The notes beneath the pieces were generated by a model. That model did no database searches and had not been told where the DNA came from. It saw only the letters and a program-made list of their open reading frames with translations. The translations under genes were made by a program, and so were the position numbers. Below, piece after piece: positions 3,932 through 50,258 of a stretch of 64,000 nucleotides of DNA. The stretch is from Takakia lepidozioides. Its lineage: Eukaryota > Plantae > Bryophyta. Position 1 is the first letter of the stretch; each line of letters begins with the position of its first letter. Location of the stretch: the NCBI GenBank assembly GCA_030704615.1, contig CM060733.1, positions 42,036,001 to 42,100,000 on the forward strand, written 5' to 3'.

Positions 3932-4487
3932 CCTTGAAAAAGAGTAGCGGAGTACGCTCAATGACAGCAGCTCCCGGATGGAGGAGGAGCAGCGCGGTGG
4001 CTGGAAAAAGTTCAAGCTAACGCTGCAATTCCTCACAAACACTCCAGGGCACATTTAAATTTCCCCCCTACAGGATCCTGGACCGATGAAGATTGGCTGC
4101 TGCATGAATGTAGCCGTTTCAGTTTCCTACCCTGCCATGCAAACTATGGGCAGTCATTGCCAGGTGGGCCGATAGCCACTGGACACGACGAAGTCCATCC
4201 CCTCTTCGATGTAAATGCGGCGCCGAATTTCCATCCGGGGGGATGGACTTCGGTGGCAGATCTCAAACTATAACTTGTTGATGAGAAAGATGTATGGGTT
4301 CATCCACCGCTGGCGTGATGAACACGTTCCACCTCCGTCGGTGGGTACGTGGGACCCAGATGCTCCATTGTTGGAGGCCGGACTACTCTTCCGCTTCGCA
4401 TCATTTCCAAAATCTAAGGGCTTCGTAGCTGTCCGCAAGGTCATTGTCACCGGCATCCAAGTGGTCCTCAGGTCCTCGTTTGCAAGG

Positions 4488-5051
4488 ATGCCGTGCTTCT
4501 GGAACCGGGACGACTGCCCATTTGGAGGCATCGATTATGCAATGTATTCGGCCACATCGGGAGACATTGTTATCTGGTACACAGATTACAGAGAAGATAC
4601 TGGTTCGATTGTGGAAACATTGGTGGCTTTTGAGTATATCGTAGGCCACTACGCCTTCGAGCGGGGTGACAATCTTGGTCTGAGGAGTCTGCGGCTCCTG
4701 CGCATCCTCGATTCCGATTTTCCCAGCTACGACGGTCACCCATGCAGAAGAAGACGCACTGCTATGCTGTTGCGGTGGAACTGCTGCCACTGGACGTGGG
4801 TGGACTCCATCGGAGAGACCTATTCTCCTCAAGGAGTGCGCTCCTCTTCTCCATTGTATGGGGACATTCGCATTGGTGTGGACGACGAAAACGTGAAGAT
4901 TTCCATATTCGATGGTGGTATGATTGAAGGGCAGGACATTGTGGTGAACATCACTAGGGGCGGTACAACGGCTGCAATCGACTTTACTTGGAGGAGCCCC
5001 ATGACTCATGAGGTAGTTCTGAGAGCAGTTGAAGTCCCATTGACAACGTGA
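4488..5051 (+). CDS. Unknown cargo protein, about 187 aa (paralog 2)
   Basis: Intact ORF from MPCFWNR with the same caaggATGccgtgc start context as paralog 1. A second copy lies at 22606-23166. Confidence 0.7.
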   Translation: MPCFWNRDDCPFGGIDYAMYSATSGDIVIWYTDYREDTGSIVETLVAFEYIVGHYAFERGDNLGLRSLRLLRILDSDFPSYDGHPCRRRRTAMLLRWNCCHWTWVDSIGETYSPQGVRSSSPLYGDIRIGVDDENVKISIFDGGMIEGQDIVVNITRGGTTAAIDFTWRSPMTHEVVLRAVEVPLTT

Positions 5052-15186: not shown

Positions 15187-15209
15187 ATGTGAGACCTTCA
15201 ACCTTTCCA

Positions 15210-15550
15210 GACCGGAAATGCGACACCGCATTTCTGTCCAGGTGAGACCTCTATACTTTCCCGAACGGAAATGTGGCACGGCATTTCCATTCATCAACTA
15301 ACGTATGTGAAGTGGAACGGAAATGCGGCGCCGCATTTCCCTTCTGATCTCATACATGGAGCTGTGGGACGGAAATGCGGCACCGTATTTCCGTTCAACA
15401 ACTAAGGTATGTGAAGGTGGAACGGAAATGCGGTGCCGCATTTTCTTCCAACAAGTACGGATGTGTAGCTGTGATGTACTTAACGGAAATGCGGCGCCGC
15501 ATTCGCATTCTCGCTCCAACTCATCAGACGCTGGGACGGAAATGCCTTGA
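15210..15550. repeat. Family C palindrome cluster between the transposase and the ParB-methyltransferase gene
   Basis: About 6 copies, including the perfect GGAAATGCGGCGCCGCATTTCC at 15319. Confidence 0.9.
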
Positions 15551-15853: not shown

Positions 15854-18800
15854 ATGCTCGAACCTGAGAGGGGGGGAGTTCGTGCACCAGACAGGAGACC
15901 TCGTCGCAAGCTCCGGAAATTATACTTCGGACGTAGGCCAATGCCGAAGGGGAGGAAGCAGATGCGTCTACAGGAGGAGATTGCCATCTCCGAGCAGCAG
16001 GCCACTCAGGCAACCCAGCCACCAGTGAGAGCTCCATGCGATCGGGCTGCGCGCAGCTGATCGAGCACCGAACCCCCCATTTTGCTTCTGTAATTCTTAG
16101 ACTGAATGCTAGGAGACTTGAATGCAGAACATGTTTGCATGCCTAACAGGAAAGGTGGACGTGCTGGAGGGATCGCAGGAATCCGAAGAGCCGCAGGAAG
16201 AGTCCGAGGAGCTAGCTGCAGCACGTACACCCACCCGATCCCCGAGCGCGGGTATCCTGCCGGCCTAGCCCTCTGCGATTCAAAGACGCGTCTTCGAAGG
16301 GCAAGTTCAAAGTCTCCAGAGATCGACTCGCGTTCTTCGATCATGGAGAATCGCCAGCAGGGTCGGGCCCTTCTCCAGCAAAGTCGAAGAAGAAGCAGCC
16401 CGTCCCTCTACTGGCTTCTGAACCGGCTCAGGCCGATTCACCCCCCCAACGCGAATGAAGCAGCAGGGTAGAAACAGATTCTATTGCAGCAGACACCTTC
16501 ACCTGCAAGGATGAGGAAGCAGAAGGCAATCAGGGCGACGGCGAACAATCTCCCGCAAAACCGCTTCCACGAGCTGAAGCTCAGTTCCTGGAGGATTTCC
16601 CGCCTGCAGATGTTGGGGCCGACTCTGCTGCAGCGAAGGCAATGGGATCGACCGTTGATCTCGATTTGGTACCGGAGGAGGGTGCTGCCGCTGAACGTTC
16701 GCAGCAGACCTCACCACCGATGAGCTAGCAGGCCCGGAGGAGGCCTCTGCAATGGCAGAATTGCCCGCACACAGGCCCCAGAGTGCAGCTCCAGTTGAGG
16801 ATGCTCCACCTGCTCAGCCACTACCGCACCTACAGACATGTCTCCGGAGGATTTCAAAAGTGCAGCGGATAAAATGTTGGAGGAGACACACAGTAGCATT
16901 GGCAGAGTTCTGGGCAGCAGGGTATTCCAGCGGACTCTTCGAATCCCACTCTGTCGCATGGTCTCCCTTCCCATCGTCAGGCAGGCCCTTCCCGGAGATG
17001 TGGATAAGCTCAAGTTCGCATTTCGAGAAGGGTACCGTCTGGGATCGGCAGCGTTTTACGTTTCCATAGAGAATGAGGACGGCGAAACCCGTGGACCCAC
17101 TGCCGATGAATTGTCAACGTGGGATACCCACTGGCACACTCGCAACCACGAATTCGAGGCGACGCTGAAGGGTGATCCCGACTTCGGCCATATGTCGGGA
17201 AAAATGTTCTTTGTGTGGGACGGGAATCACCGACTTCTCGCCTGGTGGGAGTACATCAAGCAGAACCATGCCAAGCACATTGGCTGGCATTACATGGTGG
17301 AGTGTGTCATCCTCAAGGTGAAGGCGGCAGACTCCTCCCTCCTCAAGAATGCCATGGCGGACCTCAACTCGTAAGATACTCATACCCTCCCTAGCACATT
17401 CGAAATGCGGTGCCGCATTTCGGTTTCCATTCTGGTTTGTTCCGTGCTTCCGTGTACTGAACTGGAGAGTGTGCCTTGCAGGGTCACTGAGAATGCGTAC
17501 GTGCATACCCACATGGCACATATGCTGTACAGGGTGAGGAAAACTGGTCTTACTGATCCGCAGATGTTTGCGGAAATGCTGGAGCCGGAGCTCATTCAGA
17601 AAGCCGTTGCAAAAACAGACCGGACATGGTATCGTCTCACTATGGATGGAATGGTGAGGTGATATACGAAGTAAGTCGTGCTCCAATTTCCCTCTGCTCA
17701 TCCTTCCCAATTTCCAGTAATGTTTCCACATGAATCGAATGTAACGCTTCTGCATGTTTTTGTTGGCAGTCAAACATCAAGCTGGATTTGGCCCATGCCA
17801 AACGCTTCTTCATGGAAAGTGAGGGGCAGGTCAAAACGTTGCAGTCATTGACTGAGCACTTGAAGGAAGCCGGTGTCAAGTCCAGAACCAAATACAAGTC
17901 AAAGCTTGTGAAGCTGGTGGCAATTGCAGATCCGGCACTTGGAAAGGACTTCATCCCCGAGATTGCAAAACACTATTCTCGGGCCATGCAGCCGACCATG
18001 CAATTGGAGAAACTGCATCACCTCTCAACGGCATGTGTGGAGGCGAAAGAGAAGGTGAGGTTTCAATGCACTGAATTTCCTTCCTAGCAATAGCCACTCT
18101 CTTCCAGCCACTGACATTGGATCGGAAATGGCAGACACGGTGGCTGTCGATCTGGAATGCATCCGAGAGCATAAGGACAATGTGGTCTTTTCCACTGGAA
18201 GTTTCCGACCCTGCAGTGGATGTGTGGCTCAACCGCATGACTTGGTGGTTCCAGGTAATTCAAGGTACTTCCCCAGATTTGCTTTTCTGACATGAATTCC
18301 CTGAACTGCTACGTGACAATGCATTTGGGAATGCAGGTAATGTCGAATGCAAAGGAGCAAGTCGTAATGCACACAAATTCGTTCGGCTTGTACGTCAAAT
18401 GGGATGGAACACAGACATTGGAAGACTACGTGACACGTTTCAGATGTGCGTACAAGGACAACCTTTTCGCCAGAGAGCTACAGACAGCAAGAAGGAGCGT
18501 GGAGTTTACACATCAGGAGGGAGCGGGGAAAGCTGCAATGCGAATTGTTTACAGGTGAAGCACAGCTGCCCTTGTATGCGAAGCCTGGTTACGAGGTTTG
18601 TCTCGGAAATGCGGCACCGCATTCGCATTTTATGTTTTCGGTGGCACTCTGCCAGTAGGTTGGTCTCAAGTTTTTGCTCACGCATGCTGACTGCCTTGCA
18701 GGTATATGAAATACGTGCTCCTTCAGACAGGGGCCCTGGCTCAAGAGCCCCCGTTCTTCATGGCTTGGACCGTGGCGGGCCCAAGCTGTGTCTACACACC

Positions 18801-21038
18801 CGAGATGCAGAAACAATGGCATCCCGCGCATCTCGTTGGATGCCCGTGGTACCTGGACATGTCTGGCGGTATTGTTGACGAGTCTGAGAAAGATCTGCAC
18901 GCCTTGGCAGAAGAGAAGAGAAAGGAAAGACGTGTCCCTGCTGGGCCAAAGTCGGCAAAGGAATCTGCTGCTCTGGAAGAATCCAGAAAGGCAGCTGAGA
19001 TGGCACAAAAGACGGTGGATGCAGCTGTGCAGGCCCAACAGAAGGGGTCGAAGAAGAGGACTCGCCAGCAAGGAGCAGCTGTTGTGACACCCGCCAAAAC
19101 GAAGAAGCAGAACAGCCTGTTCAGGAAGAGGGTGAGGAAGAGGACTCCGATGGAGACTTTGCAACCAGCCCACCCCCCCAAACGCAGGCTGCCTCCCCTG
19201 TGCCCACCGTTGTCACGAGAGGCACGAGAACTGGCTCGGCAAAGAAGGCACTCTTCAACCCCCCAGGGGGGCACCCTTTCGAGCCGGTGGAAATGAAGAG
19301 GCCGAAAGTGGCTCCCGAAACTGTAGTCCAGTGTGTAAATGAGAGTTTCTTGGCGGCTTTGGATGGACGGGCAGCCAAGTTGGCATACATGAAGACCATG
19401 GAGGGTCTGAAGGGCAGCACTGAAGAAGGCGACTGCCGAAGAGCCTTCCGACACCCCAGGATTTCAGAATATGGTCTCGTTCTTTGAGAGGGTGTGTGCA
19501 GACAAGGATTGTAGGAGGGGCGGAAATGCCACCGAGTGGTCTTGCGATATGATCATCTTGGATATTCCGGACGGAGAGCCTGTGGAAGGACTGCAAGCTT
19601 TGCCATCTTGGAACAGGTACTCGGAGGACTTTTGGAAGAAAGGATTCGGGCTTGCCGCATGGTGTTGGACGACAGAGGCTGTGTGGTTGTCCTGGCGAGC
19701 AGAGGAAAAAACACTCAGACAGGAATTGCGAAGTGGACCCGCAAGAGCGCCGTCCCGATTCTGAAAAAGAAGTGGACGTGCATCAACACACTGGGCCTTC
19801 GGTCGGAAGGGAAGAAGGTGATTACGACACTGGCACTCGTCCATTCATTTGCTTGGGTGCTTTCAAATGCGGTGCCGCATTCGGTTTCTAATCGTTTTCC
19901 CCCTGTGTATGCAGACGAAGCAGTTCGATGCATACTGCTTTGTGAAGGAAAACTCCACCTTTGCTTTCCGGAAGGAGGGAGGAAAGGTTGACCCGAACTG
20001 CGACCCCTCGATTACGACGTTCTGTTCAACAACGTTCCCAAGGAACTTCTCCCTCATAGCCTCACTTCAACGGAACCCCTGCGGTACTCACGGACTCGGA
20101 GCCCTGCCTTCATTCAGACAATTATGGAGACATGCACAGACGTGGAACAGTGACCTCAGTGGGACAGGTATGCAGAATCTTGATCTCTGCTGTTCTGCAA
20201 ATTCTCGTTAGGATGTAGTTCGCAACATCTGAAGCGCCATGTGGTAATGTGTGGATGGCATTGTAACAGGTGCCTCAATGTGGGCTGGGCGGTTTTCCGA
20301 CCGGCACCTCTTTGCCTACGAGGAGGATTCATCCGTGTGGGGATCCCATCTGGAGGGGCTGCAACGGAATGTGAAGGCTCCCGACAGAGCGGAAGTCTCC
20401 TCGGATTCGTCGGAGTCCGAGGAAGACACAGTGGACATTGATGCAGAGGAGAACCCGGAATACGAGTGAGTGCAAACATTGTAAGTTTGCAAAGCCTTCT
20501 GGGTCATTTATGTCAAAGAATTTCCCGACTGTGGTTCTCATTAGTCTCGTTGATGATTGTCATGTGCAGGATTGCAGGGTCCGGGTCGAAACATGTAGGG
20601 CCTACACTTCCTGCCAGGAAGAATGTCCCGTTCTTTGCGAGGGCCGACTTCATGACGAGCCCGGTGAGGGACTACTCCCTTCCTAGTTATGCAGCTAAAC
20701 TCGCAAATACAGCGATTAGAAGAAGTGAGAATCCCAGTAAAGTAGAGCAGATTTTGGAGAGGGCTAGGGAGGACAGAAGGATAAGGAAAGAGTTGGCAGC
20801 AGCTCAGACAGGTAGACGGGTACGAAAGTACATATGTGATTCAGCGGATGAGAGCGACGCAGACAGGGAGGAGGACGACCCAACGGAGGTGAGATGGACA
20901 GTTCCGCAAGGGGAAGATGGGATTTTTGAAAGCCTGGCCAACGAGCAGTCCGCTGGAGATGAGAGAGGCACTGAGGGGGTGGAGGAGGAGCAGGACAGTC
21001 TAGAACAGGATGAGGATTCCGATGATTTTCAAGATTAA
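15854..21038 (+). CDS. ParB-DNA methyltransferase fusion, family C copy 2 (multi-exon, several 1-bp indels)
   Basis: Contains MLEPER...RRKLRKLYF, IPLCRMVSLPIVR, FFVWDGNHRLLAWW, QLEKLHHL, WHPAHLVGCPWYLD and MIILDIPDG. Intron positions match families A and B. Confidence 0.75.
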
Positions 21039-21177
21039 TAGAATTTTAATGAAGTCTCTGTAAATGTAAATTCTCTTCCAGAGTATATAAAGAAAATTCT
21101 GCCCGACATTCGTGACCCCTCTCCAGTGTGGCATTCCAGCCACACAATCGCCCAAACCAGGACGCTCCCAAAATCAG

Positions 21178-21985
21178 AAATGGGCAGGGCATTTCCAAAA
21201 TTTTGGCAACTCTAAGAACCTCTTTTGGAAATGCGGCACCGCATTTCCAAAACAGGGGAGGGACTAATTTTTCCATTTCAATGTTGGCATAGTAAAAAGT
21301 AATCTGAATTGGGAATGCGGTGCCGCATTTCCAAAATTTTCCTTTGTCCACACGCCAGTTTTGGCCTCTCCGCTCATTGCATGGATGCCACCACGCTTAC
21401 AGAGGTCGAACAAGGAGTCGAACAAGGCCGACATGGCGGGATTGGAAATGCGGTGCCGCATTTCCATATTGGGGATGGTGGTTGTTCGAACTGCAGACCC
21501 ATCAGCAAAAACTGGCACCGCATTCCATTGTAAAAAAAAGTCGATGACGGACATGGAAATGCGGCGCCGCATTTCCAGAACGGACATCGCAATTTGTCAA
21601 TTTGCAGACCCTCTCTCGGAAATGCGGTAACGCATTCCATCGCGCTGGTCGGAAATAGGTGCACTTTTCGAAGTGTTGGACGGAAATGCGGCACCGCATT
21701 CCCTTGTCCAAAAGAAGTTTCCATTGCCAAGCTGGAAATGCGTCGCCGCATTTGCAATGCCAACCTCGTTTTCTGATCAATTTATAGACCCGTGTTGGTA
21801 TTTCGGTACCTGGACGGAAATGATGCACCGCATTTTCTTGTCCCACATGGAAATGCGGTGCGCATTTCGATTCCGACATGGAAATGCGGTGCCGCATTCG
21901 ATCCCGAGGAATGCGCCGCATTTCGATGACATGGAATGCGGCGCCGCATTTCGTCCGACATGGAATGCGGTGCCGCATTTCATGT
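21178..21985. repeat. Family C palindrome cluster downstream of the ParB-methyltransferase gene
   Basis: Includes a local tandem expansion of about 28-31 bp units (GACATGGAA(A)TGCGGYRCCGCATT) at about 21845-21985, longer than in copy 1. Confidence 0.88.
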
Positions 21986-22605
21986 CCGACATGGCGTTAC
22001 TCTGGTATATTCTTGACACATGACTCACATACCGGTTACTCTGCTTTATTCAACCAGACAGACAATTGTAGAAATGAGACATCAAATTGTAAACAGTGGG
22101 CCAAATCCGAGAGTTATTCAACACAATGAAACACAGTCATACAGAAGTGAGGTACATTCCAGGCACACTCCAGGGCACATTTAAATTTCCCCCGTACAGG
22201 ATCCTGGACCGATGAAGATTGGCTGCTGCATGAATGTAGCCGTTTCAGTTTCCTACCCTGCCATGCAAACTATGGGCAGTCACTGCCAGGTGGGCCGATA
22301 GCCACTGGACACGACGAAGTCCATCCCTCTTCGATGTAAATGCGGCGCCGAATTTTCATCCGGGGGGATGGATTTCGGTGGCAGATCTCAAACTATAACT
22401 TGTTGATGAGAAAGATGTATGGCTTCATCCACCGCGGGCGTGATGAACACGTTCCACCTCCGTCGGTGGGTACGTGTGACCCAGATGCTCCATTTTGGAG
22501 GCCGGACTGCTCTTCCGCTTCGTATCTTTTCCAAAATCTAAGGGCTTCGTAGCTGTCCGCAAGGTCATCGGCATCCAAGTCGTCCTCAGGTCCTCCATTG
22601 CAAGG

Positions 22606-23644: not shown

Positions 23645-24800
23645 AATGCGAATGCGGCGCCGCATTTCCGTTAAGTACGATCACTCTGCTACACATCCGT
23701 ACTTGTTGGAAGAAAATGCGGCACCGCATTTCCGTTCCACCTTCACATACCTTAGTTGTTGAACGGAAATACGGTGCCGCATTTCTGTCCCACAGCTCCA
23801 AGTATGAGATTCAAAACGGAAATGCGGCACCGCATTTCCGTTCTGGAATGTCGAAAGGTGCGATTGGGACGGGAATGAGGCACAACATTTCAGTTCCCGT
23901 GGTTCATGATTTTCAATGTGAACGAAATGCGGTACCGCATTTCCGTTCCCACTTCACATCCGTTAGATGATGAATGGAAATGCCGTGCCACATTTCCGTT
24001 CGGAAAGTATAGAGGTCTCACCTGGACAGAAATGCGGTGCCGCATTTCCGGTCCGGAAAGTTTGAAGGTCTCACATGGATGGAAATGCGGGTACACATTT
24101 TCGTAGCACAGCTCCAGGCCCAATATACAAAACGGAAATGCGGCGCCGCATTTCCGTTCTAGAATGTCGGAAGGTGCGACTCGAACGGAAATGCGGTGCC
24201 GGATTTCTGTTCCGTTGCGCACGATTTTCAGTCAGAATGGAAATGCGGTACCGCATTTCCGTTCTGTAGAGTATTAACGTCTGACGCTGGCGGAAATTTC
24301 CGTGCCGCATTTTCGTTCGCTCCATGCCTCACATACAAAACAGAAATGCGGCGCCGCATTTCCGTTTGGAATGTCGAAGGTGCGACTCCCACGGAAATGC
24401 GGTACCGCATTTCAGTTCCGAGGTTTCAGGATGAGCATTTCGTTCCAACATACCGTGCTTGTGGAATGAAAATGCCACATTTCCGTTCGGAGAAATGTCT
24501 TTTAAGGACGGAAATGTGCTGCACATTTCGCATCAGATACAAATGGAAATGCAAATGCTCGAAAAAGTGCGACTCGGACGGAAATGCGGTGCCGCAATCT
24601 CAATCAGACGGGACATGCGGGGGTTCCCGGTACCGGCCTTTCCGTTCCACCTTCACATACCGGCTGCGGATGGAAATGCGTTACCGCATTTCCGTTCTGG
24701 AGAGTATAAAGGTTTCCCCCGGACGGAAACTCGGTGCCGTATTTCCGTCGCTCTGGTGCATGACCAAGATGCAATACGGAAATGCGGCGCCGTATTTTCG
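23645..24800. repeat. Dense family C palindrome array upstream of the transposase
   Basis: About 20 copies of (AC)GGAAATGCGG-YR-CCGCATTTCC(GT) at roughly 50-55 bp spacing, with partly diverged linkers. Confidence 0.9.
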
Positions 24801-25231
24801 TCCACCAGCAATCGAAAGAATCACTCGGGACGGGAAATCTGGAACCTGAATGGGTTGCATTGTTCCGAAACAACACAATTGCGGCCAGTCTTGGATGAGC
24901 ACAACTTGGTTGTCTGACAGTTTTAACCAGCAGTCCTGGCACTTGTCAGTGCGAACGTTCCTGTCTGCACCGAGAATACTGCTGGATCCACCCTCAGGAG
25001 AAACTGTCAGGAGATGTTATTTCGTCGCCGAATCGGCCATCATTGTCATACTCACTGGCTATGGAATCAAACCTCCCACCTTCATGCATGTAGCTTGAAA
25101 CAATACTTTCCACTTCAATGTGCGACTTCCAATCGTCGATGGACTCCGCAGATCCACTTAGATGGTGCCTGTGAGCCTTGGTCTGTCGCTATACTGAACC
25201 TCGGCACTTGCCAACTCCGTGAGGATGTTCG

Positions 25232-28200
25232 ATGGCTCCGAATTCCTACGCTATAGTTTGCTGTCCTCCGCAACTTGGGAGAGCCTGGATCCCAAACGAG
25301 GGAGGACTTTGCAGAGTGACTGAAACTTACCTTTGTTCCAAATTCAAGCTCAAACCGGGCACAGTTTATTTGGAAGAAGAAAGGAAGGATGTTCCTGGAC
25401 AGGTTGACGAGACCATTGTCGTGCTAGGTAACGACGGAGGTTGCGGAATCGAATGGCACGTTCCCCCGTCAGACACCATCATGTACCGAGCTGTGGGAAT
25501 GCCCATTCCCTTTCCGAATCAGTCGCTGCCACCACCATCCACAAGGAGTCCGGAAAACCGAGAGGCGGCCACTGCCAACAGAGAGGTATGCAACGATAAT
25601 CATTCCCGACCTGGACCGTCAAGACCCTCCATAGCTTCTCGTGTGGACGTATTCGACATTTCCGACGAGGAAGATGATTGCATTGAGGTACCCATGTCCT
25701 CCACACGGTCGTTCAAATCCGGCATGGACGTCTCTGTAGGTGCTACGAATGTGCCCTCGAGCATAACTCCAACCCGGTCCATTGTGCAGCTCCTACGACA
25801 ACATCACCTCGATGGTTCTCGCTCCGAGCTGGCTGCTCTCGACTATGCCAAATTCCCAGTCAGAAAGGTAACGTTTCTGCCTCCTGAAGTCGATGGCAAT
25901 GTCATCTTCGAGTTTCCACCTGTTTCTTCGTCAAAGAAAGCCTCCGGGATGTTAACAGACATGGATCGAAAGCATGACGGACACCCCTGGTGTGTGACGA
26001 AGACCAGTAGCACGAAAATTGCTGATGGTGTTCGTGTACGATATGTCCTCTGTGCGGGGAAGCTGAGGTGCCTCAATCCCACCTGCTTCCACTTTCTCTC
26101 CAAAGGAGGGCGGAGAAACGAGACGGATTGGACTGGCACAACGCATCATCCATTCATTGTCTCCAGCCAAGCTCCTGTGGGTTCTTTCAAGTGTGCACAT
26201 TGCAAAGAACCACCAACGTGCATGTCCATGTGCAGAGCCAAGCAATACTACGTTATCCATTTGCTCCCGGACTTGACTAGAGCTTGCATACACGTTGGGG
26301 TCCACTGCCACCCCTTGGCGAGAGGCAACATGCGTGAGGCTGTGCAGGAAGCACACGACATCATAAAAGAGGAGGTGAAATTGAGCCCCGGAGCCAGACC
26401 AAAGCAGATTCAGCTGAAGGCAGCTCACAAGATTGCTCTTGGCAAAATCATGTCTGAAGATGGTTCCGACCGAGAGCCCTTGACCGAAGACGAGATGCGG
26501 GACCTCTTGGAGTCCGTCTCGCACGTTTGTAGTCCGAATGTGCGGAATCACATCGTATCTTGCAAGCAGGAGTTCGGCAGGGGGTCGGACATGTACTCAA
26601 TCCTGGAGGTGAAACGAATGACTGGATATGACTACATCCAAGGTAGCAGGTTTCCAGGGCAAGGCAGCGAATCCGATCGTTGTTACATTTTCAAAATGTC
26701 GACGTCTGGGCCTGGGAGTGGAGTCAACTTGGTCACTCGCATGACAACTGGAAACTTGTCGAATGCTTGGGTGATGTTTGATCACATCAAGCGAATTACA
26801 AACCATCAGTGGGTGACTATGGGTGCGCATGTTTATGACTATCACTCCAAGAGGCTCATGACGATTGCAATCTGCGAGATGAAAGGGGAGGACACACAGT
26901 CCGAGATGCATCTGTGGGAGGGCATAAACGAGCAGATGGCAAGGGCGGGATTGCCAGAGCCCAATTTCAGGGATTCATGGCAGACAACGCTCAGGCCAAC
27001 TGGGCAGCGGTGCGGCGTGTGTACGGTGAGGACCCCAATGTTCCAATGGAGGGGAAAGAGAGATCCTGTGGATTCCATTGGATGTAGAGTCTATCCCACT
27101 ACACTACCAAATTTGTTGCTAGCTCATTCCAGGCTGAACACCGTGTCCTTTGTACGGCGTGGAAGGATGCACCCACATTTGATGACGCGGAGGTTAAGTT
27201 TGCTATCATCGAGGCTTGGTGGAACACGTCAGGTGCAGTGGAGACAACCAATCTGGGAGCATTGCACAGCTGGTTGGGGTGGTGGCATTTTCGGTATCGA
27301 CAGTTCGGACAGTACATGCGGGAGGTAGGCTGCTGTCAATTTCGTTCATTTGTCTTCTGTTACGGACATTTCGATTGGTCCCTCACCATTGTTTGTGTCC
27401 TTCTAGGAGCGGTGCTTGGATTCCGACACGGACATGCCGAACACGAATATGGCAGAATCGGTCCATTCCTCCTGGCGAGCGTCTTCTGCCGCACATCTGG
27501 TGGACGTAGTGACGGCCACAACGGAGGACATCGACAGAGCAATCATGCAGCAAGCCACGTACTACAAGTTCCTGAGCGGCAAACAATGGGGCTTTGGGCC
27601 GGACAGGGAGGAATTGTTGGTACGAACAGCTTCGAGGTCCAAGAATCCAGTGAAATGGGCGACAGCATTGCGAGAGAAGATCAAAGGGACGCCTCTGCAC
27701 CGCAGAGGTGAACACCTAGAGGGGGACGTCCGGACTCGCCCTGTCAGGCGGAGGATTGAAGAGGAACCCGGGTGCGAAGAGGATTCCTGGAGATCCGACA
27801 GGAACATTCGGACAGCACCTCGAGGTCCCGTCATGTTGCCGCACAATGTGTCTTCCAGCAGTGGAAGCCCAAGAAATTCCAGATCGCCGTCGCCTTCAAC
27901 CGGGGATTTCGTGCAACAAATTCCCACCACTCCCTTGCCCCACATTCCGCCCGCTGTTATGCAGTATGGCCAAGCCATTGTGGAGACGACTGTGTCTGCA
28001 TCACAGTGGAGAATTGCTCGCACAAAGCCGTCGTTTCGAGGAAGGTGTTCCGCAATTCGTGTGGATACACGGCAACGTTGTTTAGAGATGATAAGGAGGA
28101 ATCCAGATGGGGCTGTCCCTGCTCCTACTTTTACAGGAAGATTTGTCCATGCAAAGTTTGCGGAGGCGACAACCACCCAGTTCTGGTTCTGCAGGCATGA

Positions 28201-28837
28201 CATTATGACTTGCGTGTATGGAAAGCCCAAGTACGGCATACAAACAATGCCAGAGGCTCCCCCGGTGTGGCCGGTGGAACCAGGCTGCGATCTGAGTCAG
28301 GTTGAGGCCGACGCCCTTACCGCCGCAGGATTTCGGATGGTGCAGCGCACTGACGTCCCCAGAGAACCATTTCCGCTTCCACAGCCTCCACCACCGACCC
28401 CTGTGAGAGCAAGAACAATGGGACACGACAGCTCTAAGCATCCTACACACCGTTGGGGGAAACCGAAGAGGCGGCGACCTCCCTCAAAAGTGAACGAGAC
28501 AATGATGGGGAATGCACTTCGGATGAACTGTACAATCCAGAGCTCGACAGAAGTGCCCCCACCAGGATTCGGGCGTGTGTATCAAATGGCCACGGCGGGC
28601 TCAGCTGTTCGCAATGAGGTGTACACCATCACCATTTCAGAATTACCCACCTGCAATTGCACCGACTTCCAGATCATGGCGAACAAGGGGGCATCATACT
28701 GCCCTTGCAAGCATTTGTACTACGTGTACCTAAAGAGACTCCGTTGTAATTCCACAACTCATCACTTCATACATGCACCAGGGTTGAGCCCCCAGGAGGT
28801 TGACACTCTTCTGAATATGGATCCAGGGGACCAGTGA
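25232..28837 (+). CDS. MULE transposase, family C (2 exons: 25232-27324, 27407-28837; 1-bp frameshift near 26970)
   Basis: GCM-like region KHDGHPWC...CAGKLRCLNPTC...CAHC...GVHCHP. DDE motifs VMFDH / FMADNAQAN.AAVRRVY...CGFHW / NTNMAESVH. C-terminal SWIM CNCTDF...CKH. Confidence 0.88.
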
Positions 28838-32938: not shown

Positions 32939-32994
32939 CAGCGGTCTAAGAGACAAAGGAAGGGTATCATAATAGGGGCAGAACCAAATTCCCA

Positions 32995-35449: not shown

Positions 35450-35452
35450 TAG

Positions 35453-36991: not shown

Positions 36992-37483
36992 GGGGGGTGC
37001 TATTCCGTGAGCCTGGAGGCGTGAGCCTGTGAGCCCAGGAAAGCGTGAGCCCAGCACAGGCTCACGCCACGTCAGCATGCAAACAGTGCCTATTTCCGCG
37101 GATGTCACCTATTTCCGCGGGTTGATTACGCTCAAATTGAGAATGCCTGAACAGTCTTTGATGAGGTGGACTTCACCGTGATGGATTCACCAACCATTCT
37201 TTTAGCAGTAATGGTTTGGGGACCAACTACCAAATGATGCGAGAATACTCTAAACGAACCAAAGTGGTTTGTTTGTTTTCGCAATGTACTGAAGTCTGTG
37301 AGGTTCTCAAAACAACAAATATATTGAAGGAACAATCCGGGCAGTCCATGCAACCCCCATCTCCAACAATAGTTTGTAACCATGAATGTGAATTCCACGC
37401 ACACATTGCAAAGAGGACAACAAGGACACACAACCATCCCATTTCAAATGTGGCCCAGAATTAAACCAAAAGAAGACTTCATA

Positions 37484-40400
37484 TCAAGTGTCGCAGTCAT
37501 CACAATCAGTGTCCACCTCCTGTGCTATGTCATCTACAAAGATTATGGCCCCAACACCACGTGTTCTACGAAGGCCGTTGTAAGGTGGACTCCGAGTGCC
37601 ATGAACGGACATGCTTGCTGCGAGTGCCTCCGCATAGACAGATAGCACGCAAGACCGAGGAGGACTGAAAACAAGTCCAAATAAGTGTGATAGCCCTGGA
37701 GGGCAAGTGGAAGCACGCGGACTCCTGCACATGTCCACAAAATCCCATTTTTAACACAATGATGCAATGCACAAGTCCAACGAAGAGGATGTCTCCCATG
37801 TGCACTTTGCCTCGAGAACAGCGATTCTCGATATTGAAACAACAATGCAAGCATGCACAGGTTGAACTTACTCACAGGCAAAGTCGGAGTCCAGCTCCTT
37901 GTCAGAAGTCTCCTCTGTATCAGTATCAGCGGGACGGGGCTTCGGAAGCACTTGAGAAGTGTGTCCACCCAAACCCATCAGGAGGTTCTTGTAAATCTCA
38001 GCATCCCCTTCAATCCCAAAGAGATGTCGCGCACTGGCCTTGCAAGCGTGGTACGAAGCACCTGCAGTGGAATAGAATGAAGGAAGCACACATTGAAGAC
38101 ACATTCGGAACGGTGGAAAGTGCTGAAAGTGCAAGCTCAATCAAACCTCATGAAATGTGAATGTTGAAGAGACGAACCTGTGCCCATCGACAAATCTAGA
38201 ACTCTGGATGCACCCGGACGAGACAAACAGCTTCAAACAAACGAGTCTGCGAACATGACATCCACAAGGAACTAAGAACCAGAAAAAATCGGGCCCCTAC
38301 ATATGAGTTCGAGCGACCTATACAACTCAATCCGAGAACAAACAAGAAGAGGAAGAAGAAGGGAAACTCACCATCTCTCCCGGACGATCCCCCTTCGTAA
38401 GGTACATGCTGTTCACACAATTCCATGTCTTCACGACTCTCATGCCCGAGGCTTTCAAATAGCTGGCAAGTGCACGGCGACACCGAACATCGATGGACTG
38501 GATGAGCACCAAAACACCTGCATCGGAAATGAAGAAGTTGCAAAAGAAAAAAATCCACCGCCAGTAGCGCTCATCAAATGCATTCCAACCCGGACAAGCA
38601 CCCGATGGAGGGATATCCGGGACTGCCAACCCATCAGGGATGTCCAAGATGATGAGTTTGGCTGCATATGGCTTCTCCTTCCCGTTCACCCAGGATTTGG
38701 TCATTTTAGCCTGCAAACAAAAATGCAATGGAATTCTCACAAGTTTAGAAACGATCCATGCCCACAGCAGACAAAGAGAACAGAAGCCACAGAACCCAAA
38801 GAGAACACGCACCGTGCTGAGGAACTCCACAATCCTCTCCCACATTGGTGATGGCTCGCCCTTGTAATCAGATTTCTTCGACTCCATCATGGCAAGGAAC
38901 CCGACGTTGGCCATCTCCAACCTGGTTGGGCGAATGACCCTCGTGGGATGTTCCACTGCATGGTACGGGTCCTTGGGATCAACCACCCCCTTGTTTTTTC
39001 TCTCGGATCCCCTACCATGCGGTGGAGTCTGCTGGACATGCTCCACAGGGCCAATATCTGCAACACTTCCCTGCCCTTGTGCCACCTTCCCTGTACCCCT
39101 TCCCTTCCCCACAACACCAGCAACATCTTTTCCCTTTGCCTTTCTTCCTCTACCCGGGGTATCCTGAGCGGGAGGCTCCTTCTCTGCAAGAGTCCTCAAA
39201 TTACGTTCATGAATGTCGAGGTCCGCTGCTGCGGCAGTGGCTGCAATACGGTCATTCTCTCTCCTCAAAGACACCTCTGCAGCTGGGGTCTCTAAAGGAG
39301 GGCAATCCAAATACCAACCACAAGAAGAAAGATGGTCTGGGCCCCAGTCATGCAAGATCCCAGCAGTGAACATGGTCTGGTTGCCAGCAGGGACAAGCCA
39401 AAGGTCCACGAAATCTGGATGTTTGTCCAAGCAATTCTCTTCCAGGAGAACAAACTTAATGTACCTGCAGGAACAGACACAGCCTCATTTTCCAATGCAC
39501 ATATTGTGTCCCAGCTTTTTCATCACACCAGGAAGACCCCCTTAAACAGTATGCCACACAACACATTGCAACCAAACACAAATAAAGAGTGCAAGGGTGT
39601 GCACCTGTAAAGGTATCGTTTCCAGGCTTCCTCTCCTTTTTCCTGCTGGTCAAGCTCATTTGTTCGACTGATGCCACCCTCCTTGCTGAACTCTCTAAAG
39701 AAACAAGAGTGCCACACTGTGGCTCTCCATTTCCTCATGTATGCTTCGAAGGAGACCTTCGGTGCTGTCATAGTGATGCCATAGTCAGCCAGCTGAGTAT
39801 GTAGAACGGATCGGGCCCTTTCCTCCAACTGCAAAACAATTGAAATGGAAGAATGAACCCAAAAACAATCACAGCGAATGTAAGAGGCAATGGGAAGAGA
39901 AGGACACGAAAAGAGAAAAGAAAGTGAGATACGAGAGGACATCACACCTGGCTCTAGTAAGTGGCCTTGTGAAGCCAGGTGTCCAACACATTGTCACTGA
40001 CAGGAACGACACGCTGGGTCTTCTTCTCTTTCTCCGGCCTTGGGAACATGTGGGTATCCCTAACTGTGGGATCGGAGTTCCATATCTGTAGCCACTTCAC
40101 CTTCTGTTCAGAAGACACGACGGCGGTAGACAACTTGTGCAACTTCTCCTGGGCCATCTCTGGCTTGCCTGGCTTGTTATAATGGTTTTTTATCTCCAGG
40201 AGAAACTGCAGCCCGAATGATGGGTCGGCAATTCTCAACTGCTTCACAAAAGCACTCATTATTGTCCTTCTTGTAGCATTCATCTCCTTCTGGATGTGAC
40301 TTTCAACCCCCTTTGCTGTCCTTCTCTCCTCAGGGGTAGAGCTGTAGTATTCCAGTTTGCCACGCTCCCCTGCATCTGCAATGTCTTGCTGCAAGGGAAT

Positions 40401-43400
40401 GCAAGAGAGTTGCATCAATCCAAGGTCAAGGGAAACATACAGAAACAAACATGTGGAAGCAGGAATATGGAAAGGCCAGATGAAGGAAGATGTATCTCAC
40501 CGTGTACATGTACTCCATGAAAGCCTCACCGGTCAACGAGTACCACGTTTCCGATGTCTTGGAGCTTTCGCATTTCTTATACATCTCTGCCAAAAGGATG
40601 GTCTTGAAGTTGGTCAAGGGCATCTGCCCGATCCTTTGTATCCTGTACAGTGTGTGAACCAGACTCGTTTTGACATGCGATGTCTCCGTCCCTCTGCAGA
40701 ATGATTTCTGAAAGTCAGAATGAAATTCGAGGACTTGAATCAAGGAAGAACGGAACCGCAAGTGCAACATGTACAATGAGAAACCAACCTGTTCACATCA
40801 TTCATTGCCGTTAGAAGACCCATCATGTTCCCGTCACAATCCAGCACCATCGATCGAACAAAGTAATGCCACTCTTCCTCCTGTGAGTGCAGCCTCCCAA
40901 TGACAGCCATCCATGCAAGCAACCGGTGGTTGCCATCCCAAACGTGAAACATCTTCCCTGAGAATGCCTGGGTGGAAGGTTTCCTGGAGAGAAGAAATTC
41001 GAAGGATTCATTCACCTGTCTCCAAATGGGGTCCCAGGAGTCGACTATTGAATCATCCACAAGGAGCTCATTACCTCTGGAATCCCTAGTAGAAACGTAA
41101 AAGACTCCAGATCCATCCAAATACCCATGAACAAACTCGGCCTCCAGCTTGAGAATGTCCTTGACGAGGGGTGGACGAACGACGGGCATGGAAACCAACC
41201 TACACAGGGGAATCTTCAACCTCCCACCCGGAGCAAGCATACTTTGCACCACAAGCTGAGAGTTCACCTTCTGATCCCCCAGCGGCTTTGCTTTCATAGA
41301 ACTCATTGTCAACATCAACTATGGTCTCCTTCCCCTGACCCGAAGGGACCTCATCCTCCACAATTTGCATCTTCTCCTACAAGGTTGTTCATTCAAATTC
41401 ATATAAAAGAGGCATGAAACGTAGACTGAGGCATGAAAAAGTGGGCTCAAATAGTGTGCGTTGACGCACACTGTTTTGAGCTGCCATATAAGTGTACATT
41501 AATCCTCACAGACCTCCCCTATGTTGCCGAATTGCAAAGGAAAAAAACAGTGTCAGGTACAGCTCAAACAGTGTGCGGCAACGCACACTGATTGCGCTGC
41601 CACTGAATCATTCTTTCATCCTCAGAAACCTGCCCTTCAAGTCCGAATTTCACAAGGAAAAAACAGAGTCATGTGCAACTCAAACAGTGTGCGTTGACGC
41701 ACACTGTTAAAGCTACCACTGAATGTTTTTTTCATCCTCAGATACCAATCCGAATTTCATCCTCACATACAGAATTTCATCCGAATTTCATCCTCCGAAT
41801 TTACATGGAAAAGAAAGTGACATACTCAGCTTAAACAGTGTGCGTTCACGCACACTGTAAGAGCTGCCACTGAAGGGTTCCTACATCCTCATAAACATGC
41901 CCTAAAAGGCCTAATATTACCAGAAAATTGCTGTCACATGTTCAGCTCAAACAGTGTGCGGCAACGCACACTCTTTGAGCTCGCACTGAATGCTTTTTCC
42001 TTCCTCGGATATCAACCCTAAAAGGCCGAATTAACATGGAAAACACAGGGACATGCTGAGCTCAAACAGTGTGCGTTGACGCACACTGCTTGAGCTGCCA
42101 CTCAAGGGTTCCTTCATCCTCATAAACATGCCCTTAAAGGCCTATTTCTACCATGAAATTGCTGTCACATGTTCAGCTCAAACAGTGTGCGGTAACGCAC
42201 ACTGTTTGAGCTGGCACTGAATGCTTCTTTCTTCCTCGGATATCAACCCTAAAAGGCGGAATTTACATGGAAAACACAGGGACATGCTGAGCTCAAACAG
42301 TGTGCGTTGACGCACACTGTTTGAGCTGCCACTCAAGGGTTCCTTCATCCTCATAAACATGCCCTTAAAGGCCTATTTCTACCATGAAATTGCTGTCACA
42401 TGTTCAGCTCAAACAGTGTGCGGCAACGCACACTATTTGAGCTGCCAGTGAAGTGTGCCTTCATCCTCATGAACATGCCTAAAAGGCCAAATTTTACTAC
42501 GAAATTGCTGTCACATGTTCAGCTCAAACAGTGTGCGGCAACGCACACTGTCTGAGCTGCCACTGAAGCGTTCCTTCATCCTCATGAACATGCCTTAAAA
42601 TGCTTAATTTTACCAAGAAATTGCTGTCACTTGTTCAGCTCAAACAGTGTGCGGCAACGCACACTGTTTGAGCTGCCACTGAAGGGTTCCTTCATCCTCA
42701 TGAACATGCCTTAAAAGGCTTAATTTTACCAGGAAATTGCTGTTACTTGTTCAGCTCAAACAGTGTGCGTTGACGCACACTGTTTGAGCTGCCACTGAAG
42801 GGTGCCTTCACCCTCATCAACAGGCCCTTATAGGCCTAATTTTACCAGGAAATTGATGTCACGTGTTCAGCTCAAACAGTGTGCGGCAACGCACACTCTT
42901 TGAGCTGCCACTGAAAGGTGGCTTCATCCTCATGAACAAGCCCTAAAATGCCTCATTTTACCAGGAAATTGCTGTCGCATGTTCAGCTCAAATAGTGTGC
43001 GGCAACGCACACTGTTTGAGCTGCCTTTTGAAGGGTTCCTTCACCCTCATAAACAGGCCCTTATAGGCCTAATTTTACCAGGAAATTCCTGTCACATGTT
43101 CAGCTCAAACAGTGTGGCAACGCACACTGTTTGAGCTGCCACTGAAGGGTTCCCTCATCCTCATGAACATGCCTTAAAAGGCCTAATTTTACCAGGAAAT
43201 TGCTGTCACTTGTTCAACTCAAATAGTGTGCGTTGACGCAGACTGTTTGAGCTGCCACTGAAGGGTTCCTTCACCCTCATAAACAGGCCCTTATAGGCCT
43301 AATTTTACCAGGAAATTGCAGTAACATGTTCAGCTCAAATAGTGTGCGGCAACGCACACTGTTTGAGCTGCCACTGAAGGGTGCCTTCATCCTCATGAAC

Positions 43401-45865
43401 AGGCCCTAAAAGGCCTAATTTTACCTGGAAATTGCTGTCACATGTTCAGCTCAAACAGTGTGCGGCAACGCAAATTGTTTGAGCTGCCACTGAAGGGTTT
43501 CTTCACGCTCATGAACAGGCCCTAAAAGGCCTAATTTTACCAGGAAATTGCTGTCACATGTTCAGCTCAAACAGTGTGCGGCAACGCACACTGTTTGAGC
43601 TGCCACTGAAGGGTTCCTTCATCTTCATGAACATGCCTTAAAAGGCTTAATTTTACCAGGAAATTGTTGTCACTTGTTCAGCTCAAACAGTGTGCGTTGA
43701 CGCACACTGTTTGAGCTGCCATTGAAGGGTGCCTTCACCCTCGTAAACAGGCCCTTATAGGCCTTATTTTACCAAGAAATTGATGTCACATGTTAAGCTC
43801 AAACAGTGTGGGGCAGCGCACACTGTTTGAGCTGCCACTGAAGGGTGCCTTCATCCTCATGAACAGGCCCTAAAAGGCCTAATTTTACCAGGAAATGTCT
43901 GTCATATGTTGAGCTGAAACAGTGTGCGGCAACGCACACTCTTTGAGCTGCCACTGAAGGGTTCATTCATCCTCATGAACAGGCCCTAAAACGCGTTATT
44001 TTACCAGGAAGTTGATGTCACATGTTCAGCTCAAACAGTGTACGGCAACGCACACTGTTTGAGCTGCCACTGAAGGGTTCCTTCATCCTCATGAACAGGC
44101 CCTAAAACGCCTAATTTTACTAGGAAATTGCTGTCTCATGTTCAGCTCAAACAGTGTGCGGCAACGCACACTGTTTGAGCTGCCACTGAATGGTTCCTTC
44201 ATCCTCATGATCAGGCCCTAAAATGCCTAATTTTACCAGGAAATTGCTGTCTCATGTTCAGCTCAAACAGTGTGCGGCAACGCACACTGTTTGAGCTGCC
44301 ACTGAAGGGTGCTTTCATCCTCATGAACATGCCCTAAATGGCCTAAATTTACCAGGAAATTGTTGTCATATGTTCAGCTCAAACAGTGTGCGGCAACGCA
44401 CGCTGTTTGAGCTGCCACTGAAGGGTTCCTTCATCCTCCTGAACAGGCCCTAAAACGCCTAATTTTACCAGGAAATTGCTGTCACATGTTCAGCTCAAAC
44501 AGTGTGGGGCAACGCACACTGTTTGAGCTGCCACTGAAGGGTTCTTTCATCCTCATGATCAGGCCCTAAAACGCCTAATTTTACCAGGAAATTGCTGTCT
44601 CATGTTCAGCTTAAATAGTGTGCGGCAACGCACACTGTTTGAGCTGCCACTGAAGGGTTCCCTCATCCTCATGAACATGCCTTAAAAGGCCTAATTTTAC
44701 CAGGAAATTGCTGTCACTTGTTCAGCTCAAACAGTGTAGGTTGACGCACACTGTTTGAGCTGCCACTGAAGGGTTCATTCACCCTCATAAACAAGCCCTT
44801 ATAGGCCTAATTTTACCAGGAAATTGCTGTCACATGTTCAGCTCAAACAGTGTACGGCAACGCACACTGTTTGAGCTGCCATTGAAGGGTGCCTTCATCC
44901 TCATGAACATGCCCTAAAATGCCTAATTTTACCAGGAAATGTCTGTCACATGTTCAGCGCAAATAGTGTGCGGCAACGTACACTGTTTGAGCTGGCACTG
45001 AAGGGTTCGTTCTTCCTCGGATATCAAACGTAAAAGGCGGAATTTATATGGAAAACACATTGACATGGTGAGCTCAAACAGTGTGCGTTGATGCACACTG
45101 TTTGAGCTGCCATTGAAGGGTTCCTTCATCCTTGGAATCATGCCGTGAAAGGCTTACTTTAACAAAGACAAAACTGTCACATGTTCAGCTCAAAGAGTGT
45201 GCGGCAACGTACACTGTTTGAGCTAGCAGTGAATCCTTCTTTCCACCTCACATACCTTCCCTTGAAATCCGAATTGCACAGGCTAAAAACACATTCATGT
45301 ATAGCTGAAACGGTGTGCGGCAACGCACACTGTTCGAGCAGCTAGTGAATCCTTCTTTCATCTTGAGATTAGGCTATTTTCATATCAGCAACAAAGCACA
45401 AATGTAGGTCTTAAAGATTTTACCTTCTTCTTAGCTGCTCGAGAAGACTCCCCAATTGTCGGGGACCCCTTGCGCTTCGGGCTGCTTTCTGCGCCCAGCG
45501 TGTACGTGAGCCTCTCCCCCTTCCTATTTCCCGTAGGCAAATTCTTCGTGAGGCCACCATGAACATCTCCTTCCATCTCCTCTGTCTCTCGCTCCGATGC
45601 AGTATCCTCTTCATCTGTTCCTCGAACTATGGCGGGCTGTTGTTCTTTTCCTGATTCCTGCTCCTCCATCGCCACACTTTCCTCTATTCCCTCTTCTACC
45701 TCCTTTTCCTCTTCGTCCACTCTTTCTATCCTCATTCTACCTCTGGCTCTATTCCTGTTTCTAGTGCTCGTGAAATATAACGACTTCCTTCTCTTTCTCC
45801 TACGCTGGAAACAAGGGCTCCCCACGATTCCTCTAGAGCTCTCCAGTTTGACGTTTGCAACAGTT
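37484..45865 (-). pseudogene. ParB-DNA methyltransferase fusion, family A (multi-exon; one TAG and an internal deletion)
   Basis: RKRRKSLYFTS (about 45.8 kb), FHVWDGNHRLLAW (about 40.9 kb), WGPDHLSSCGWYLDCPP, KLIILDIPDG and RVLDLSMGTG|ASYHACKASARHLFGIEGD. A W-to-stop change lies near 39955, and about 200 bp are missing near 38205. Confidence 0.8.
41444..45345. repeat. Tandem array of about 34 x 116 bp, each unit with a 40-bp palindrome CAGCTCAAACAGTGTGCG(GCA/TTG)ACGCACACTGTTTGAGCTG
   Basis: Palindrome starts at 42520, 42636, 42752, 42868 and so on. The array is homogeneous centrally and diverged at both edges. Confidence 0.97.
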
Positions 45866-46688
45866 CTGCTATGGCATGTATCCCAAATCGCAATTGGACG
45901 TTGTCATCCGTATTTGGATGCGGGTGTTGTTATTGTGTGCGAACGGAATTCATCCATTTCGTCGTCTTTGTATTATCCAAAAAATAAAGCGCTGGAAAAA
46001 AAGTACATCCGTTGCATGCACTTGCGATATATGTCAGATGTACTTCGCCGCCTGCCAGTACATGGCGGCCTTCTTGCTTTCTTTCAAATTCGGATGTGCC
46101 GTAGAAATCTAATGCTAGTTCGTTTTCGATCAGTTCCTGCAGATCCACAATAATTGTTATGCTTCACATATGCATACACGTGTGTTGTACTGCCTCCCCT
46201 AAGGTTTGTATTTTGACATAACCGTCGCCATGGGGTCATTCGACATAAAGGGTTGTGTCGGATATGGGCATGTCTTGCACACATTCGTGCGAGGTATCTC
46301 TTGGAGTGTCAGTGTTTGTGCTGTGCTCTTCTGGCACAGCACAACCTCATTACTTTCGGGGTCTTCTTTTTTACTGCTCCCCAGGGTTGTTGCCGTCTTT
46401 CCATAATGGATGGTTTCATGCCGTTGTCGGGGTCTGTTTTCATCCAAAAACAACACGGCTTCTTGTGGCTTCCAGTCTTCGAAAACAGTTTTTCTGGTTG
46501 GTGCCTCTTGTCGTTTATGTTTTCGAAGCCAAGGTGCATGTCATTCCTGCATCCTTTGCATGCATCGCCCGCAGCCTTTTGATTCGTGCTACCCTTGTTG
46601 TCCTCCGTTTGCTTGTGTTAAGTCCCCTTTCGACAATTAGGGGCTATCAGTTCGGGGATTCCGCTACTTTTGTTCAGTGAAGGAAAAC

Positions 46689-49600: not shown

Positions 49601-50258
49601 AGACGATATGGCACGATGCGTGAAGGGAACAGTTCGTCCATCGGTGATAATGAAACCGCCTCCCCCCGCAATTTGGTCTGTGAAAATTGGGACGTCGCTG
49701 TCATCAACCGAGATAAGCATGCTGGAGGAGGGAGGGTTCTGTCTTGCACGGTCCCAGGTGGTGCCCTCATGCACTGTCGGCACAGATGTGCCTCATGCTC
49801 CGGCAATGCCGCCACCCGGTGCCGACTCCCACCCAACAAAAAGAGATGGAAAAACAGTGCGCCGTGTCGCTTCGGGTGTAGATCACGAATGCAAGATGGA
49901 ATCTGCTAGAATTTTGCAGGCTCGGGTGACTCGTATCACCAAAATCCCTTCCCCGGGGTATGGACGGATTTACACAGTGCTGTCAATTGGGTCAGTTCTT
50001 CATGGCAAAGAATATCAGGTTACCGTCGGGAATTTCCCTTCGTGCACTTGTCCGGATTTTGTAACGATGCGTGAGGGCGCTCTCGGGATGAGAGGGAAGT
50101 GGGTCCCCTGTAAGCATCAATATTACATATACCTTGTAATTATGTGTTGCGACGGTAAGAGAGACCAATTCATTCACCAAGCCACACTAGGCTACGGGGA
50201 AGTCAACACCCTTCTCCAGCGAGACACCTCGCGTGGAGCTCCGCCAACTTCTCTTTGA
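46689..50258 (+). CDS. MULE transposase, family A (2 exons: 46689-48709, 48846-50258; 1-bp frameshift near 46995)
   Basis: KHDGHPWCRTKTS GCM-like domain; LMFDH / FMADSAQANFNAVRRVF...CLFHW / CNLAETVH; SWIM CTCPDF...CKH. Same intron position as in family C. Confidence 0.9.

Follow-up and report, generated by a model that had tools for sequence, protein, structure and literature searches.

Mutator-like elements at the locus

The DNA that we analysed, a 64-kb stretch of the Takakia lepidozioides genome that we call the window, holds nested and partly inverted copies of three Mutator-like element (MULE) families, A, B and C, as identified by self-comparison (Table 1). In every family, a DDE transposase gene stands head-to-head with an intron-rich accessory gene, the layout of A recurring in B and C, and in the product of the accessory gene a helical middle joins an N-terminal ParB/Srx-fold domain to a beta-class amino-methyltransferase fold. 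The full-length element A carries two genes, with the transposase on the plus strand, the accessory gene on the minus strand and a 116-bp tandem array between them, and it is bounded by a 9-bp target-site duplication, GTCCTTGAG (36983–36991 and 50678–50686), that occurs no third time in the window and whose length lies within the 8–11 bp by which MULEs are recognized. The flanks of B and C are rearranged, and no target-site duplication was found for either family. At 41279, where the family A accessory gene is frameshifted, the contigs of two other runs with the same organism label have 8 more bases; in other words, open-frame copies of this gene exist. In contigs from two further runs, presumed to be RNA, no intron joints turned up, and the matches were confined to short pieces at 85–95%.

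Table 1. Positions of genes, palindromes and terminal repeats in the window
Feature	Position	Strand	Remarks
Full-length family A element	36992..50677		inserted in Gypsy-type LTR retrotransposon
Family A ParB/putative pseudo-methylase gene	37872..41370	-	frameshift near 41279
Family A MULE-type transposase, two ORFs	46856..50258	+	
Family A 116-bp tandem array	41445..45370		29.3 copies; 40-bp palindrome per unit
Subterminal C(A/G)TGAGC repeats, A left end	37006..37066		also A at 50576-50663
Further C(A/G)TGAGC sites	5464-5500, 13232-13290, 23580-23609, 29610-29661, 63487-63538		
Family B ParB/putative pseudo-methylase gene	57212..62517	+	ParB exon end 58580; motif IV exon 61411-61749
Family B transposase, 5' part	55286..56488	-	
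Family B intronic array, TGAATGKCGT-YR-ACGMCATTCA	59780..60503		orthologous copies 12051-12824, 53353-54076
Degenerate B palindromes, 5' intron	57589..57907		other copy 9613-10177
Family C ParB/putative pseudo-methylase gene	15940..21038	+	stops and frameshifts in copy; ends approximate; ParB exon 16830-17371
Family C MULE-type transposase	25223..28837	+	frameshifted; C-terminal SWIM-like finger
Family C small extra gene	4215..5051	+	copy 22340-23160 (+); inverted diverged paralogue 3353-4054 (-)
C palindrome array, GGAAATGCGG-YR-CCGCATTTCC	23645..24800		17 relaxed copies, spacing mostly 52-53 bp
Inverted twin of C array	15187..15535		in spacer of transposase and ParB-methylase genes; interrupted by 500-N gap
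Second C array, 3' of ParB-methylase gene	21200..22000		another copy 2371-3095
Single C palindrome, intron after ParB exon	17401..17422		
Single C palindrome	18605..18626		intron matching that of the B array in protein position
Single C palindrome, intron of methylase-fold region	19863..19884		other copy 1047-1068

The copies have been considerably rearranged. A large inverted duplication at 13216–29677 is made of two C transposase halves, and the ParB-side end of C at 23630 runs straight into the array of a second C copy; family B has a comparable inverted copy (51134–55298 versus 58558–62721, 97.6%). The inverted copies of C and B suggest alternative (reversed-end) transposition and insertion of the elements into their own kind. 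A gap of 500 N (14687–15186) probably conceals about 4 kb of inverted C transposase and array. Family C also has a small extra gene, whose inverted, diverged pair gives a pN/pS-based ratio of about 0.5 and for which we found no Pfam, meaningful PHROG or Atlas match.

In the transposase, two Asp residues and a CxxH motif are invariant in all 39 aligned proteins, with LAETVH as the Glu candidate by inspection, and the A protein combines a Cys/His-rich N-terminal part with D..D..CxxH, the Glu candidate and a SWIM-like finger. Pfam matches are weak (SWIM, E 0.06–0.19; Transposase_mut, E 0.034 in 1 of 25 proteins), so that the transposase is best assigned, by its sequence, to a divergent non-TIR clade of MULEs. 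The element ends are likewise of the non-TIR type, being short, G-rich and degenerate, with inward C(A/G)TGAGC repeats. These repeats are common to the termini of A, B and C, are seen again at three related loci (L030, L058 and L047) and are, rather than the palindromes described next, the likely sites of the transposase.

Family-specific palindromes on a shared core

A sequence-only reading of this DNA had claimed that each family has its own multicopy palindrome on a common core and that each palindrome is confined to its own family, and both claims stand. The core, CG[GT]YR[AC]CG, matches 103 times in the window compared with 6–8 times in each of three Markov shuffles, and all 103 matches lie inside the elements (C 48, B 26, A 29); the 10.4 kb of other DNA in the window, which is the whole extent of this test of exclusivity, has none, and the motifs are thus not equally common outside the elements within the window. 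Exact matches to the patterns first proposed number 13 for C, 15 for B and 7 for A, and relaxed matches 50, 30 and 34, respectively, against 0–1 in Markov shuffles. When the arm CpGs and the centre were masked in the search, the palindromes fell in their own family in 51/51 cases for C, 28/30 for B and 34/36 for A.

The palindromes occupy the intergenic spacer and introns, and some stand next to the small extra gene. For example, the C array at 23645–24800 is intergenic, upstream of the C transposase, and the main array of B fills an intron whose C counterpart has the single copy at 18605. The earlier statement that the motifs occur in introns or intergenic DNA holds for most copies; the exceptions are two C copies at the start of the small extra gene (4211 and 22336) and two directly 3' of the transposase (13803 and 29076). 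Single C copies had been reported from small introns at about 1049, 17402 and 18606, and we recovered them at 1047 (with its counterpart at 19863), 17401 and 18605, the introns having been called by hand from sequence alone.

Several measures bear on whether these motifs are maintained. Between the B1 and B2 introns, 129 of 132 positions are identical within motifs compared with 605 of 757 outside (Fisher p 1.6e-8), and in the family A unit conservation is 0.961 for the motif versus 0.866 for the rest. The two arm CpGs of C are intact in 45/51 and 46/51 copies, as counted in a search that masked the CpG positions, compared with 15/51 for the central CG, which where lost has been replaced by deamination products. 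The spacings favour multiples of 10.5 bp both in the window (mean cos 0.42, 28 distinct spacings, p 5e-4, the spacings not being fully independent) and at other loci (mean cos 0.25, 44 spacings, p 0.01, neither spacings nor copies being independent). Taken together, these measures give the motifs the appearance of candidate protein-binding sites that are under selection and in phase with the helix.

The accessory protein

The ParB-like nature of the protein encoded by the palindrome-bearing elements, proposed in the earlier reading, is borne out by the predicted fold. The model of the ParB exon has a pLDDT of 94, and 8/8 structural matches at Z ≥ 5 have the ParB/Srx fold, with KorB as the best (Z 7.9, rmsd 2.6, 90 residues aligned) and ParB, Noc, PadC and sulfiredoxin also represented; all have Z below 8 and none reaches a Foldseek E ≤ 0.001. 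Atlas features agree with this fold assignment. The exon has a dN/dS of 0.15 between B1 and B2, and its conserved residues include R49 (53/60), G130 (56/61), R133 (54/61) and N177 (55/60). In Caulobacter ParB, CTP binding and hydrolysis involve R60, R103, R104, N136 and R139 as well as Q58, E102 and E135 (PMC8367383). By motif inspection rather than residue-level superposition, the equivalents of R60, R104 and N136 are kept, the E102 position is an invariant Asn (61/61), that of R103 is His and those of Q58 and E135 are hydrophobic. The accessory protein has DGNHR where bacterial ParB has GERR, and matches to the DGQHR domain are weak (3/61 members). From these residues, nucleotide binding by the ParB domain is plausible, and the hydrolysis residues Q58, E102 and E135 appear to have been replaced.

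Helices follow the N domain, the KorB match ending at chain residue 169, and the helical middle of the full-length Riccia homologue model (pLDDT 57) gave no match to an HTH or other DNA-binding fold. ParABS partition was considered and rejected: among 50 window ORFs none has an ATPase Pfam match that would make it a ParA partner, and element A has its two genes only. PDB sequence searches with the accessory protein returned nothing informative. A profile search recovered 912 representatives at 50% identity of what is a protein family without a Pfam model, and the 10 long representatives that we looked up come from the liverwort Riccia sorocarpa and the fern Adiantum.

What of the methylase? 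In the same Riccia model, the unmatched middle is followed by a beta-class amino-methylase fold, for which the top Foldseek rows are CcrM, MboIIA and HpyAVI; PF01555 is detected in Riccia homologues through matches that fall short of the curated cut-off (E 9e-6 to 5e-5). The beta-class motif order, IV before I, is present and the G-x-G of motif I is kept. Motif IV itself reads DIPDG in A, in B and in the translation of C, and 21 regex matches among homologues are DLPTG/DMPTG/DVPFG-like, with 0 instances of the canonical (D/N/S)PP(Y/F/W). We therefore rejected an active DPPY methylase; of the ParB-methyltransferase proposed earlier, the beta-class fold and motif order survive and the catalytic DPPY motif does not. 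The methylase exons of A and B are nevertheless identical at 66/112 residues with synonymous sites saturated, and on sequence grounds this part of the protein is a conserved, probably non-catalytic fold. A related locus was found neither in viral contigs nor in prokaryote genomes, where one stretch was confirmed, and a tblastn search of phages gave weak methylase pieces only.

Related families

To what extent does the arrangement recur? A scan of metagenome contigs confirmed 250 stretches, and the best 80, which were kept, form 42 clusters. Among these, a transposase lies head-to-head upstream in 8 of 42. An array search that did not presuppose the core found core-bearing arrays at 14/42 loci (five of the 42 being second cluster members), and a core-based search found at least three copies, above 20 shuffles, in 19/42 clusters, of which L068 and L007 are doubtful. 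The core is thus joined to new arms in other families (for example CAACTTT, GTACTTT, CTTCTYT, CTATGGT, CCATATG and AAGCATT), and it is kept across proteins that are only 35–55% identical. Strict counts of perfect palindromes miss arrays in decayed loci, and we used a transition-tolerant search. Of the 32 clusters with at least 1.2 kb of upstream sequence, 18 have arrays and 14 have none at threshold; L036, L051, L066 and L009 showed no palindromes at all in the core-based search. As the clusters lacking arrays are mostly CpG-decayed copies, their array loss is ambiguous. Placement is again narrow, with 94/100 copies just upstream or in a downstream intron, in windows that were chosen post hoc and make up 27% of the DNA.

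Co-phylogeny of motif and protein had been suggested as a further check. Motif and protein distances are correlated (Mantel rho 0.54, n=22, p 2e-4; rho 0.45, n=19, p 1e-3), and the palindrome arms follow the ParB-exon tree, with the exceptions of L053, which has arms of the L013 clade, and L045, which has arms of the L029 clade. The predicted correlation is thus present, but it is not specific to ParB: transposase identities group the families broadly as the ParB tree does, and for this reason co-phylogeny lacks the power to single out the ParB protein. At the level of sequence comparison, what the correlation shows is co-descent, in which kin would inherit their motifs.

A candidate mechanism and its rivals

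Which protein reads the palindromes, and with what effect? Judging from the sequences and from analogous systems, we think it reasonably probable that the accessory protein binds its phased cognate palindromes as a dimer and counters silencing. The ParB-fold/pseudo-methylase protein would recognize the palindromes of its own family, with the constant CG-K-YR-M-CG core read by a conserved protein surface and the outer arms supplying family identity, and the phased copies would let the protein load cooperatively along a single face of the DNA. Dimerisation or spreading would be gated by a nucleotide held in the ParB domain, and the methylase fold, instead of catalysing, would bind DNA, flip bases or act as a shield. 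The protein would keep its own element unmethylated and expressed, giving a VANC-like anti-silencing, possibly with KorB-like autoregulation in addition. Retention of the arm CpGs is consistent with such protection from 5mC, as is the CpG o/e of 0.5–0.8 in element genes compared with 0.23–0.36 in neighbouring elements, a contrast that is confounded by element age. Of the earlier proposal that these are parS-like sites of a self-recognition system, the part that holds is a set of motifs that look selected and phased, on an element with its own ParB-fold protein; parS-like loading dependent on CTP finds no support, the equivalents of Q58, E102 and E135 apparently having been replaced and neither an HTH match nor a ParA having been found.

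A bolder version of this idea is one that we entertain only tentatively. Bacterial ParB relatives load on palindromes and then slide, and the accessory protein might be a nucleotide-gated clamp descended from a ParB–parS-type device that slides along the element, its dead methylase fold shielding CpGs from host 5mC. Such a clamp, if real, would explain directly how anti-silencing that starts at short motifs comes to cover an entire transposon; it would also be a eukaryotic ParB/parS system open to programming, with a set of orthogonal protein–site pairs already supplied by nature.

In another account, the Cys/His-rich N-terminal domain of the transposase binds the internal palindromes, activating or assembling on its own family, and the ParB-methylase does something else. 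We regard this as unlikely. By itself, the AtMu1 transposase brings about hypomethylation and activation of its own family, but its peaks are at TIRs (bioRxiv 10.64898/2026.08.24.746577), whereas the palindromes here are internal, family-specific and found also within introns of the ParB gene, and the termini bear a different repeat that is common to all families. Transposase relationships do parallel the motif groups, and the largest arrays lie directly upstream of the transposase gene. The outer arms of the A palindrome contain the terminal-repeat word TGAGC, which occurs 62 times in the A array; however, the C array and the B array have it only once each. At other loci, mostly of one subclade, the main palindrome takes turns with another, GAGCT-YR-AGCTC, in units of about 105 bp (L076, 100–830, and the upstream regions of L038, L053, L047, L058, L029 and L030). 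Since this palindrome and the A outer arms resemble the terminal repeat, the sequences suggest that the transposase also binds in arrays and that, in some of them, both element proteins may bind.

Less likely still is a role other than anti-silencing for a ParB-fold protein bound to the palindromes, be it repression or control of copy number in the manner of KorB, or the marking of self by an active DNA amino-methylase. The best fold match is indeed the plasmid repressor KorB, the sites are grouped around the promoter and introns of the protein's own gene, and purifying selection acts on the methylase fold, which retains its G-x-G and has a PF01555 E of about 1e-5 in Riccia homologues; against this, the non-canonical motif IV of the window proteins and of all 21 homologue matches does not fit an active methylase, and arm-CpG retention together with the high CpG o/e fits protection from 5mC.

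We consider it very unlikely that the motifs are sites of a host factor or hairpins of DNA or RNA (a cruciform, splicing or small-RNA signal). CpG-containing palindromes do resemble host transcription-factor sites, but the arms vary with the element tree inside one contig set. Each copy can fold into a stable hairpin (z −5 to −9), and yet the inner positions of many copies lack complementarity and have been maintained in that state (G/A in 23/36 copies of A; mismatched in 15/30 of B), which argues against a hairpin, and arm sequence is fixed within a family beyond what mere pairing demands. The motifs have no Rfam match, and we rejected the hairpin RNA reading. Finally, neutral minisatellites amplified by slippage, for which one could cite the plain 116-bp tandem repeat of A and the 52–53-bp periodicity of C, are the least credible source, largely refuted by motifs that outlast their spacers (diverged in the C and B arrays, unlike in A), single copies in tiny introns and one core across such distant proteins.

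Relation to known systems

The closest functional parallel is Arabidopsis VANDAL/VANC, in which a MULE with degenerate TIRs carries an accessory gene and VANC binds family-specific motifs, tandemly repeated in introns and intergenic DNA, that diverge with the family (PMC5735166). The VANC motifs are 8–9-bp words, whereas those described here are 22–40-bp palindromes with a constant CpG core, and "palindrom" has 0 occurrences in the main text of that paper (PMC5735166). The proteins differ as well: VANC has DUF1985/DUF287, for which we found no Pfam match in 11 accessory proteins at E ≤ 10 or in 16 at E ≤ 1, and the accessory protein has ParB/Srx and amino-methylase folds. Its named homologues are from a liverwort and ferns. 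With the bacterial ParB–parS, Noc–NBS and KorB–OB systems, the elements share the N-terminal ParB/Srx fold with its conserved Arg, GxxR and Asn, and multiple palindromes with a central YR that cluster near the gene (PMC8367383). Unlike bacterial ParB, the accessory protein has DGNHR, apparently replaced hydrolysis residues, no HTH match, a C-terminal methylase fold and no ParA, and it belongs to an intron-containing eukaryotic transposon. It has the beta-class motif order and fold in common with phage loci that pair ParB with a beta-class DNA amino-methylase and with eukaryotic 4mC/6mA methylases such as MpDN4MT1; it differs from both in being MULE-borne and lacking a catalytic SPPY/DPPY, and its matches to phage DNA methylases are weak. 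Spm TnpA and the AtMu1 transposase likewise provide transposon-encoded, family-specific recognition that reverses silencing, but those regulators are or derive from transposases, AtMu1 binding TIRs (bioRxiv 10.64898/2026.08.24.746577), whereas the accessory protein is by its fold not transposase-derived.

By analogy, then, the system would work like VANDAL/VANC without being a member of it, and would use a ParB fold without falling under the definition of ParB–parS; our best reading is that of a VANDAL/VANC-like self-recognition and anti-silencing, carried out in seed-free plants by an unrelated ParB/pseudo-methylase protein. We found no paper on a ParB-methylase MULE in the openly accessible literature; for example, a MULE survey has 0 hits for ParB or methyltransferase in its accessible text (PMC6446971), and the accessible parts of a review of eukaryotic adenine methylases (PMC4738411) and of a study of Marchantia 4mC (bioRxiv 2021.02.12.428880) make no mention of one. 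What is understood of how transposons escape methylation family by family comes chiefly from Arabidopsis VANDAL, Spm and AtMu1. The elements described here, which belong to genomes of liverwort and fern type, represent a structurally unrelated candidate solution with a bacterial ParB fold as its building block. With at least half a dozen distinct arm variants and their proteins at hand, specificity, co-evolution and nucleotide dependence can be tested in vitro, and such pairs could yield orthogonal tools for locus-specific epigenome editing.

Other repeats and neighbouring elements

Beyond plants, the Atlas ties the ParB exon (58047–58580) to fungal clusters, 31% of them with DUF3723, a family known from Starship elements; ParB-like proteins may be connected more broadly with the giant transposons of eukaryotes. 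Repeats of other kinds also accompany these genes. Arrays of tandem units of the TAATRGCYA type and of CCATGG-centred palindromes occur in or near ParB-gene introns of L007 (4995–5720), L068 (8350–8830 and 12720–13250), L003 (12175–13035) and L071 (3816–4190), the palindromes possibly being decayed forms of CCGCGG, a word that is also seen near the ends of the window elements. Within the window, a 2.1-kb insertion in family B (6377–8521), with the short inverted ends TAGTGTGAA/TTCACACTA and a low CpG o/e of 0.36, is probably another DNA transposon, and the degenerate Gypsy-type LTR retrotransposon at 29681–36990, with gag, protease, RT and RNase H on the minus strand and integrase pieces on the plus strand, is strongly depleted in CpG (o/e 0.23).
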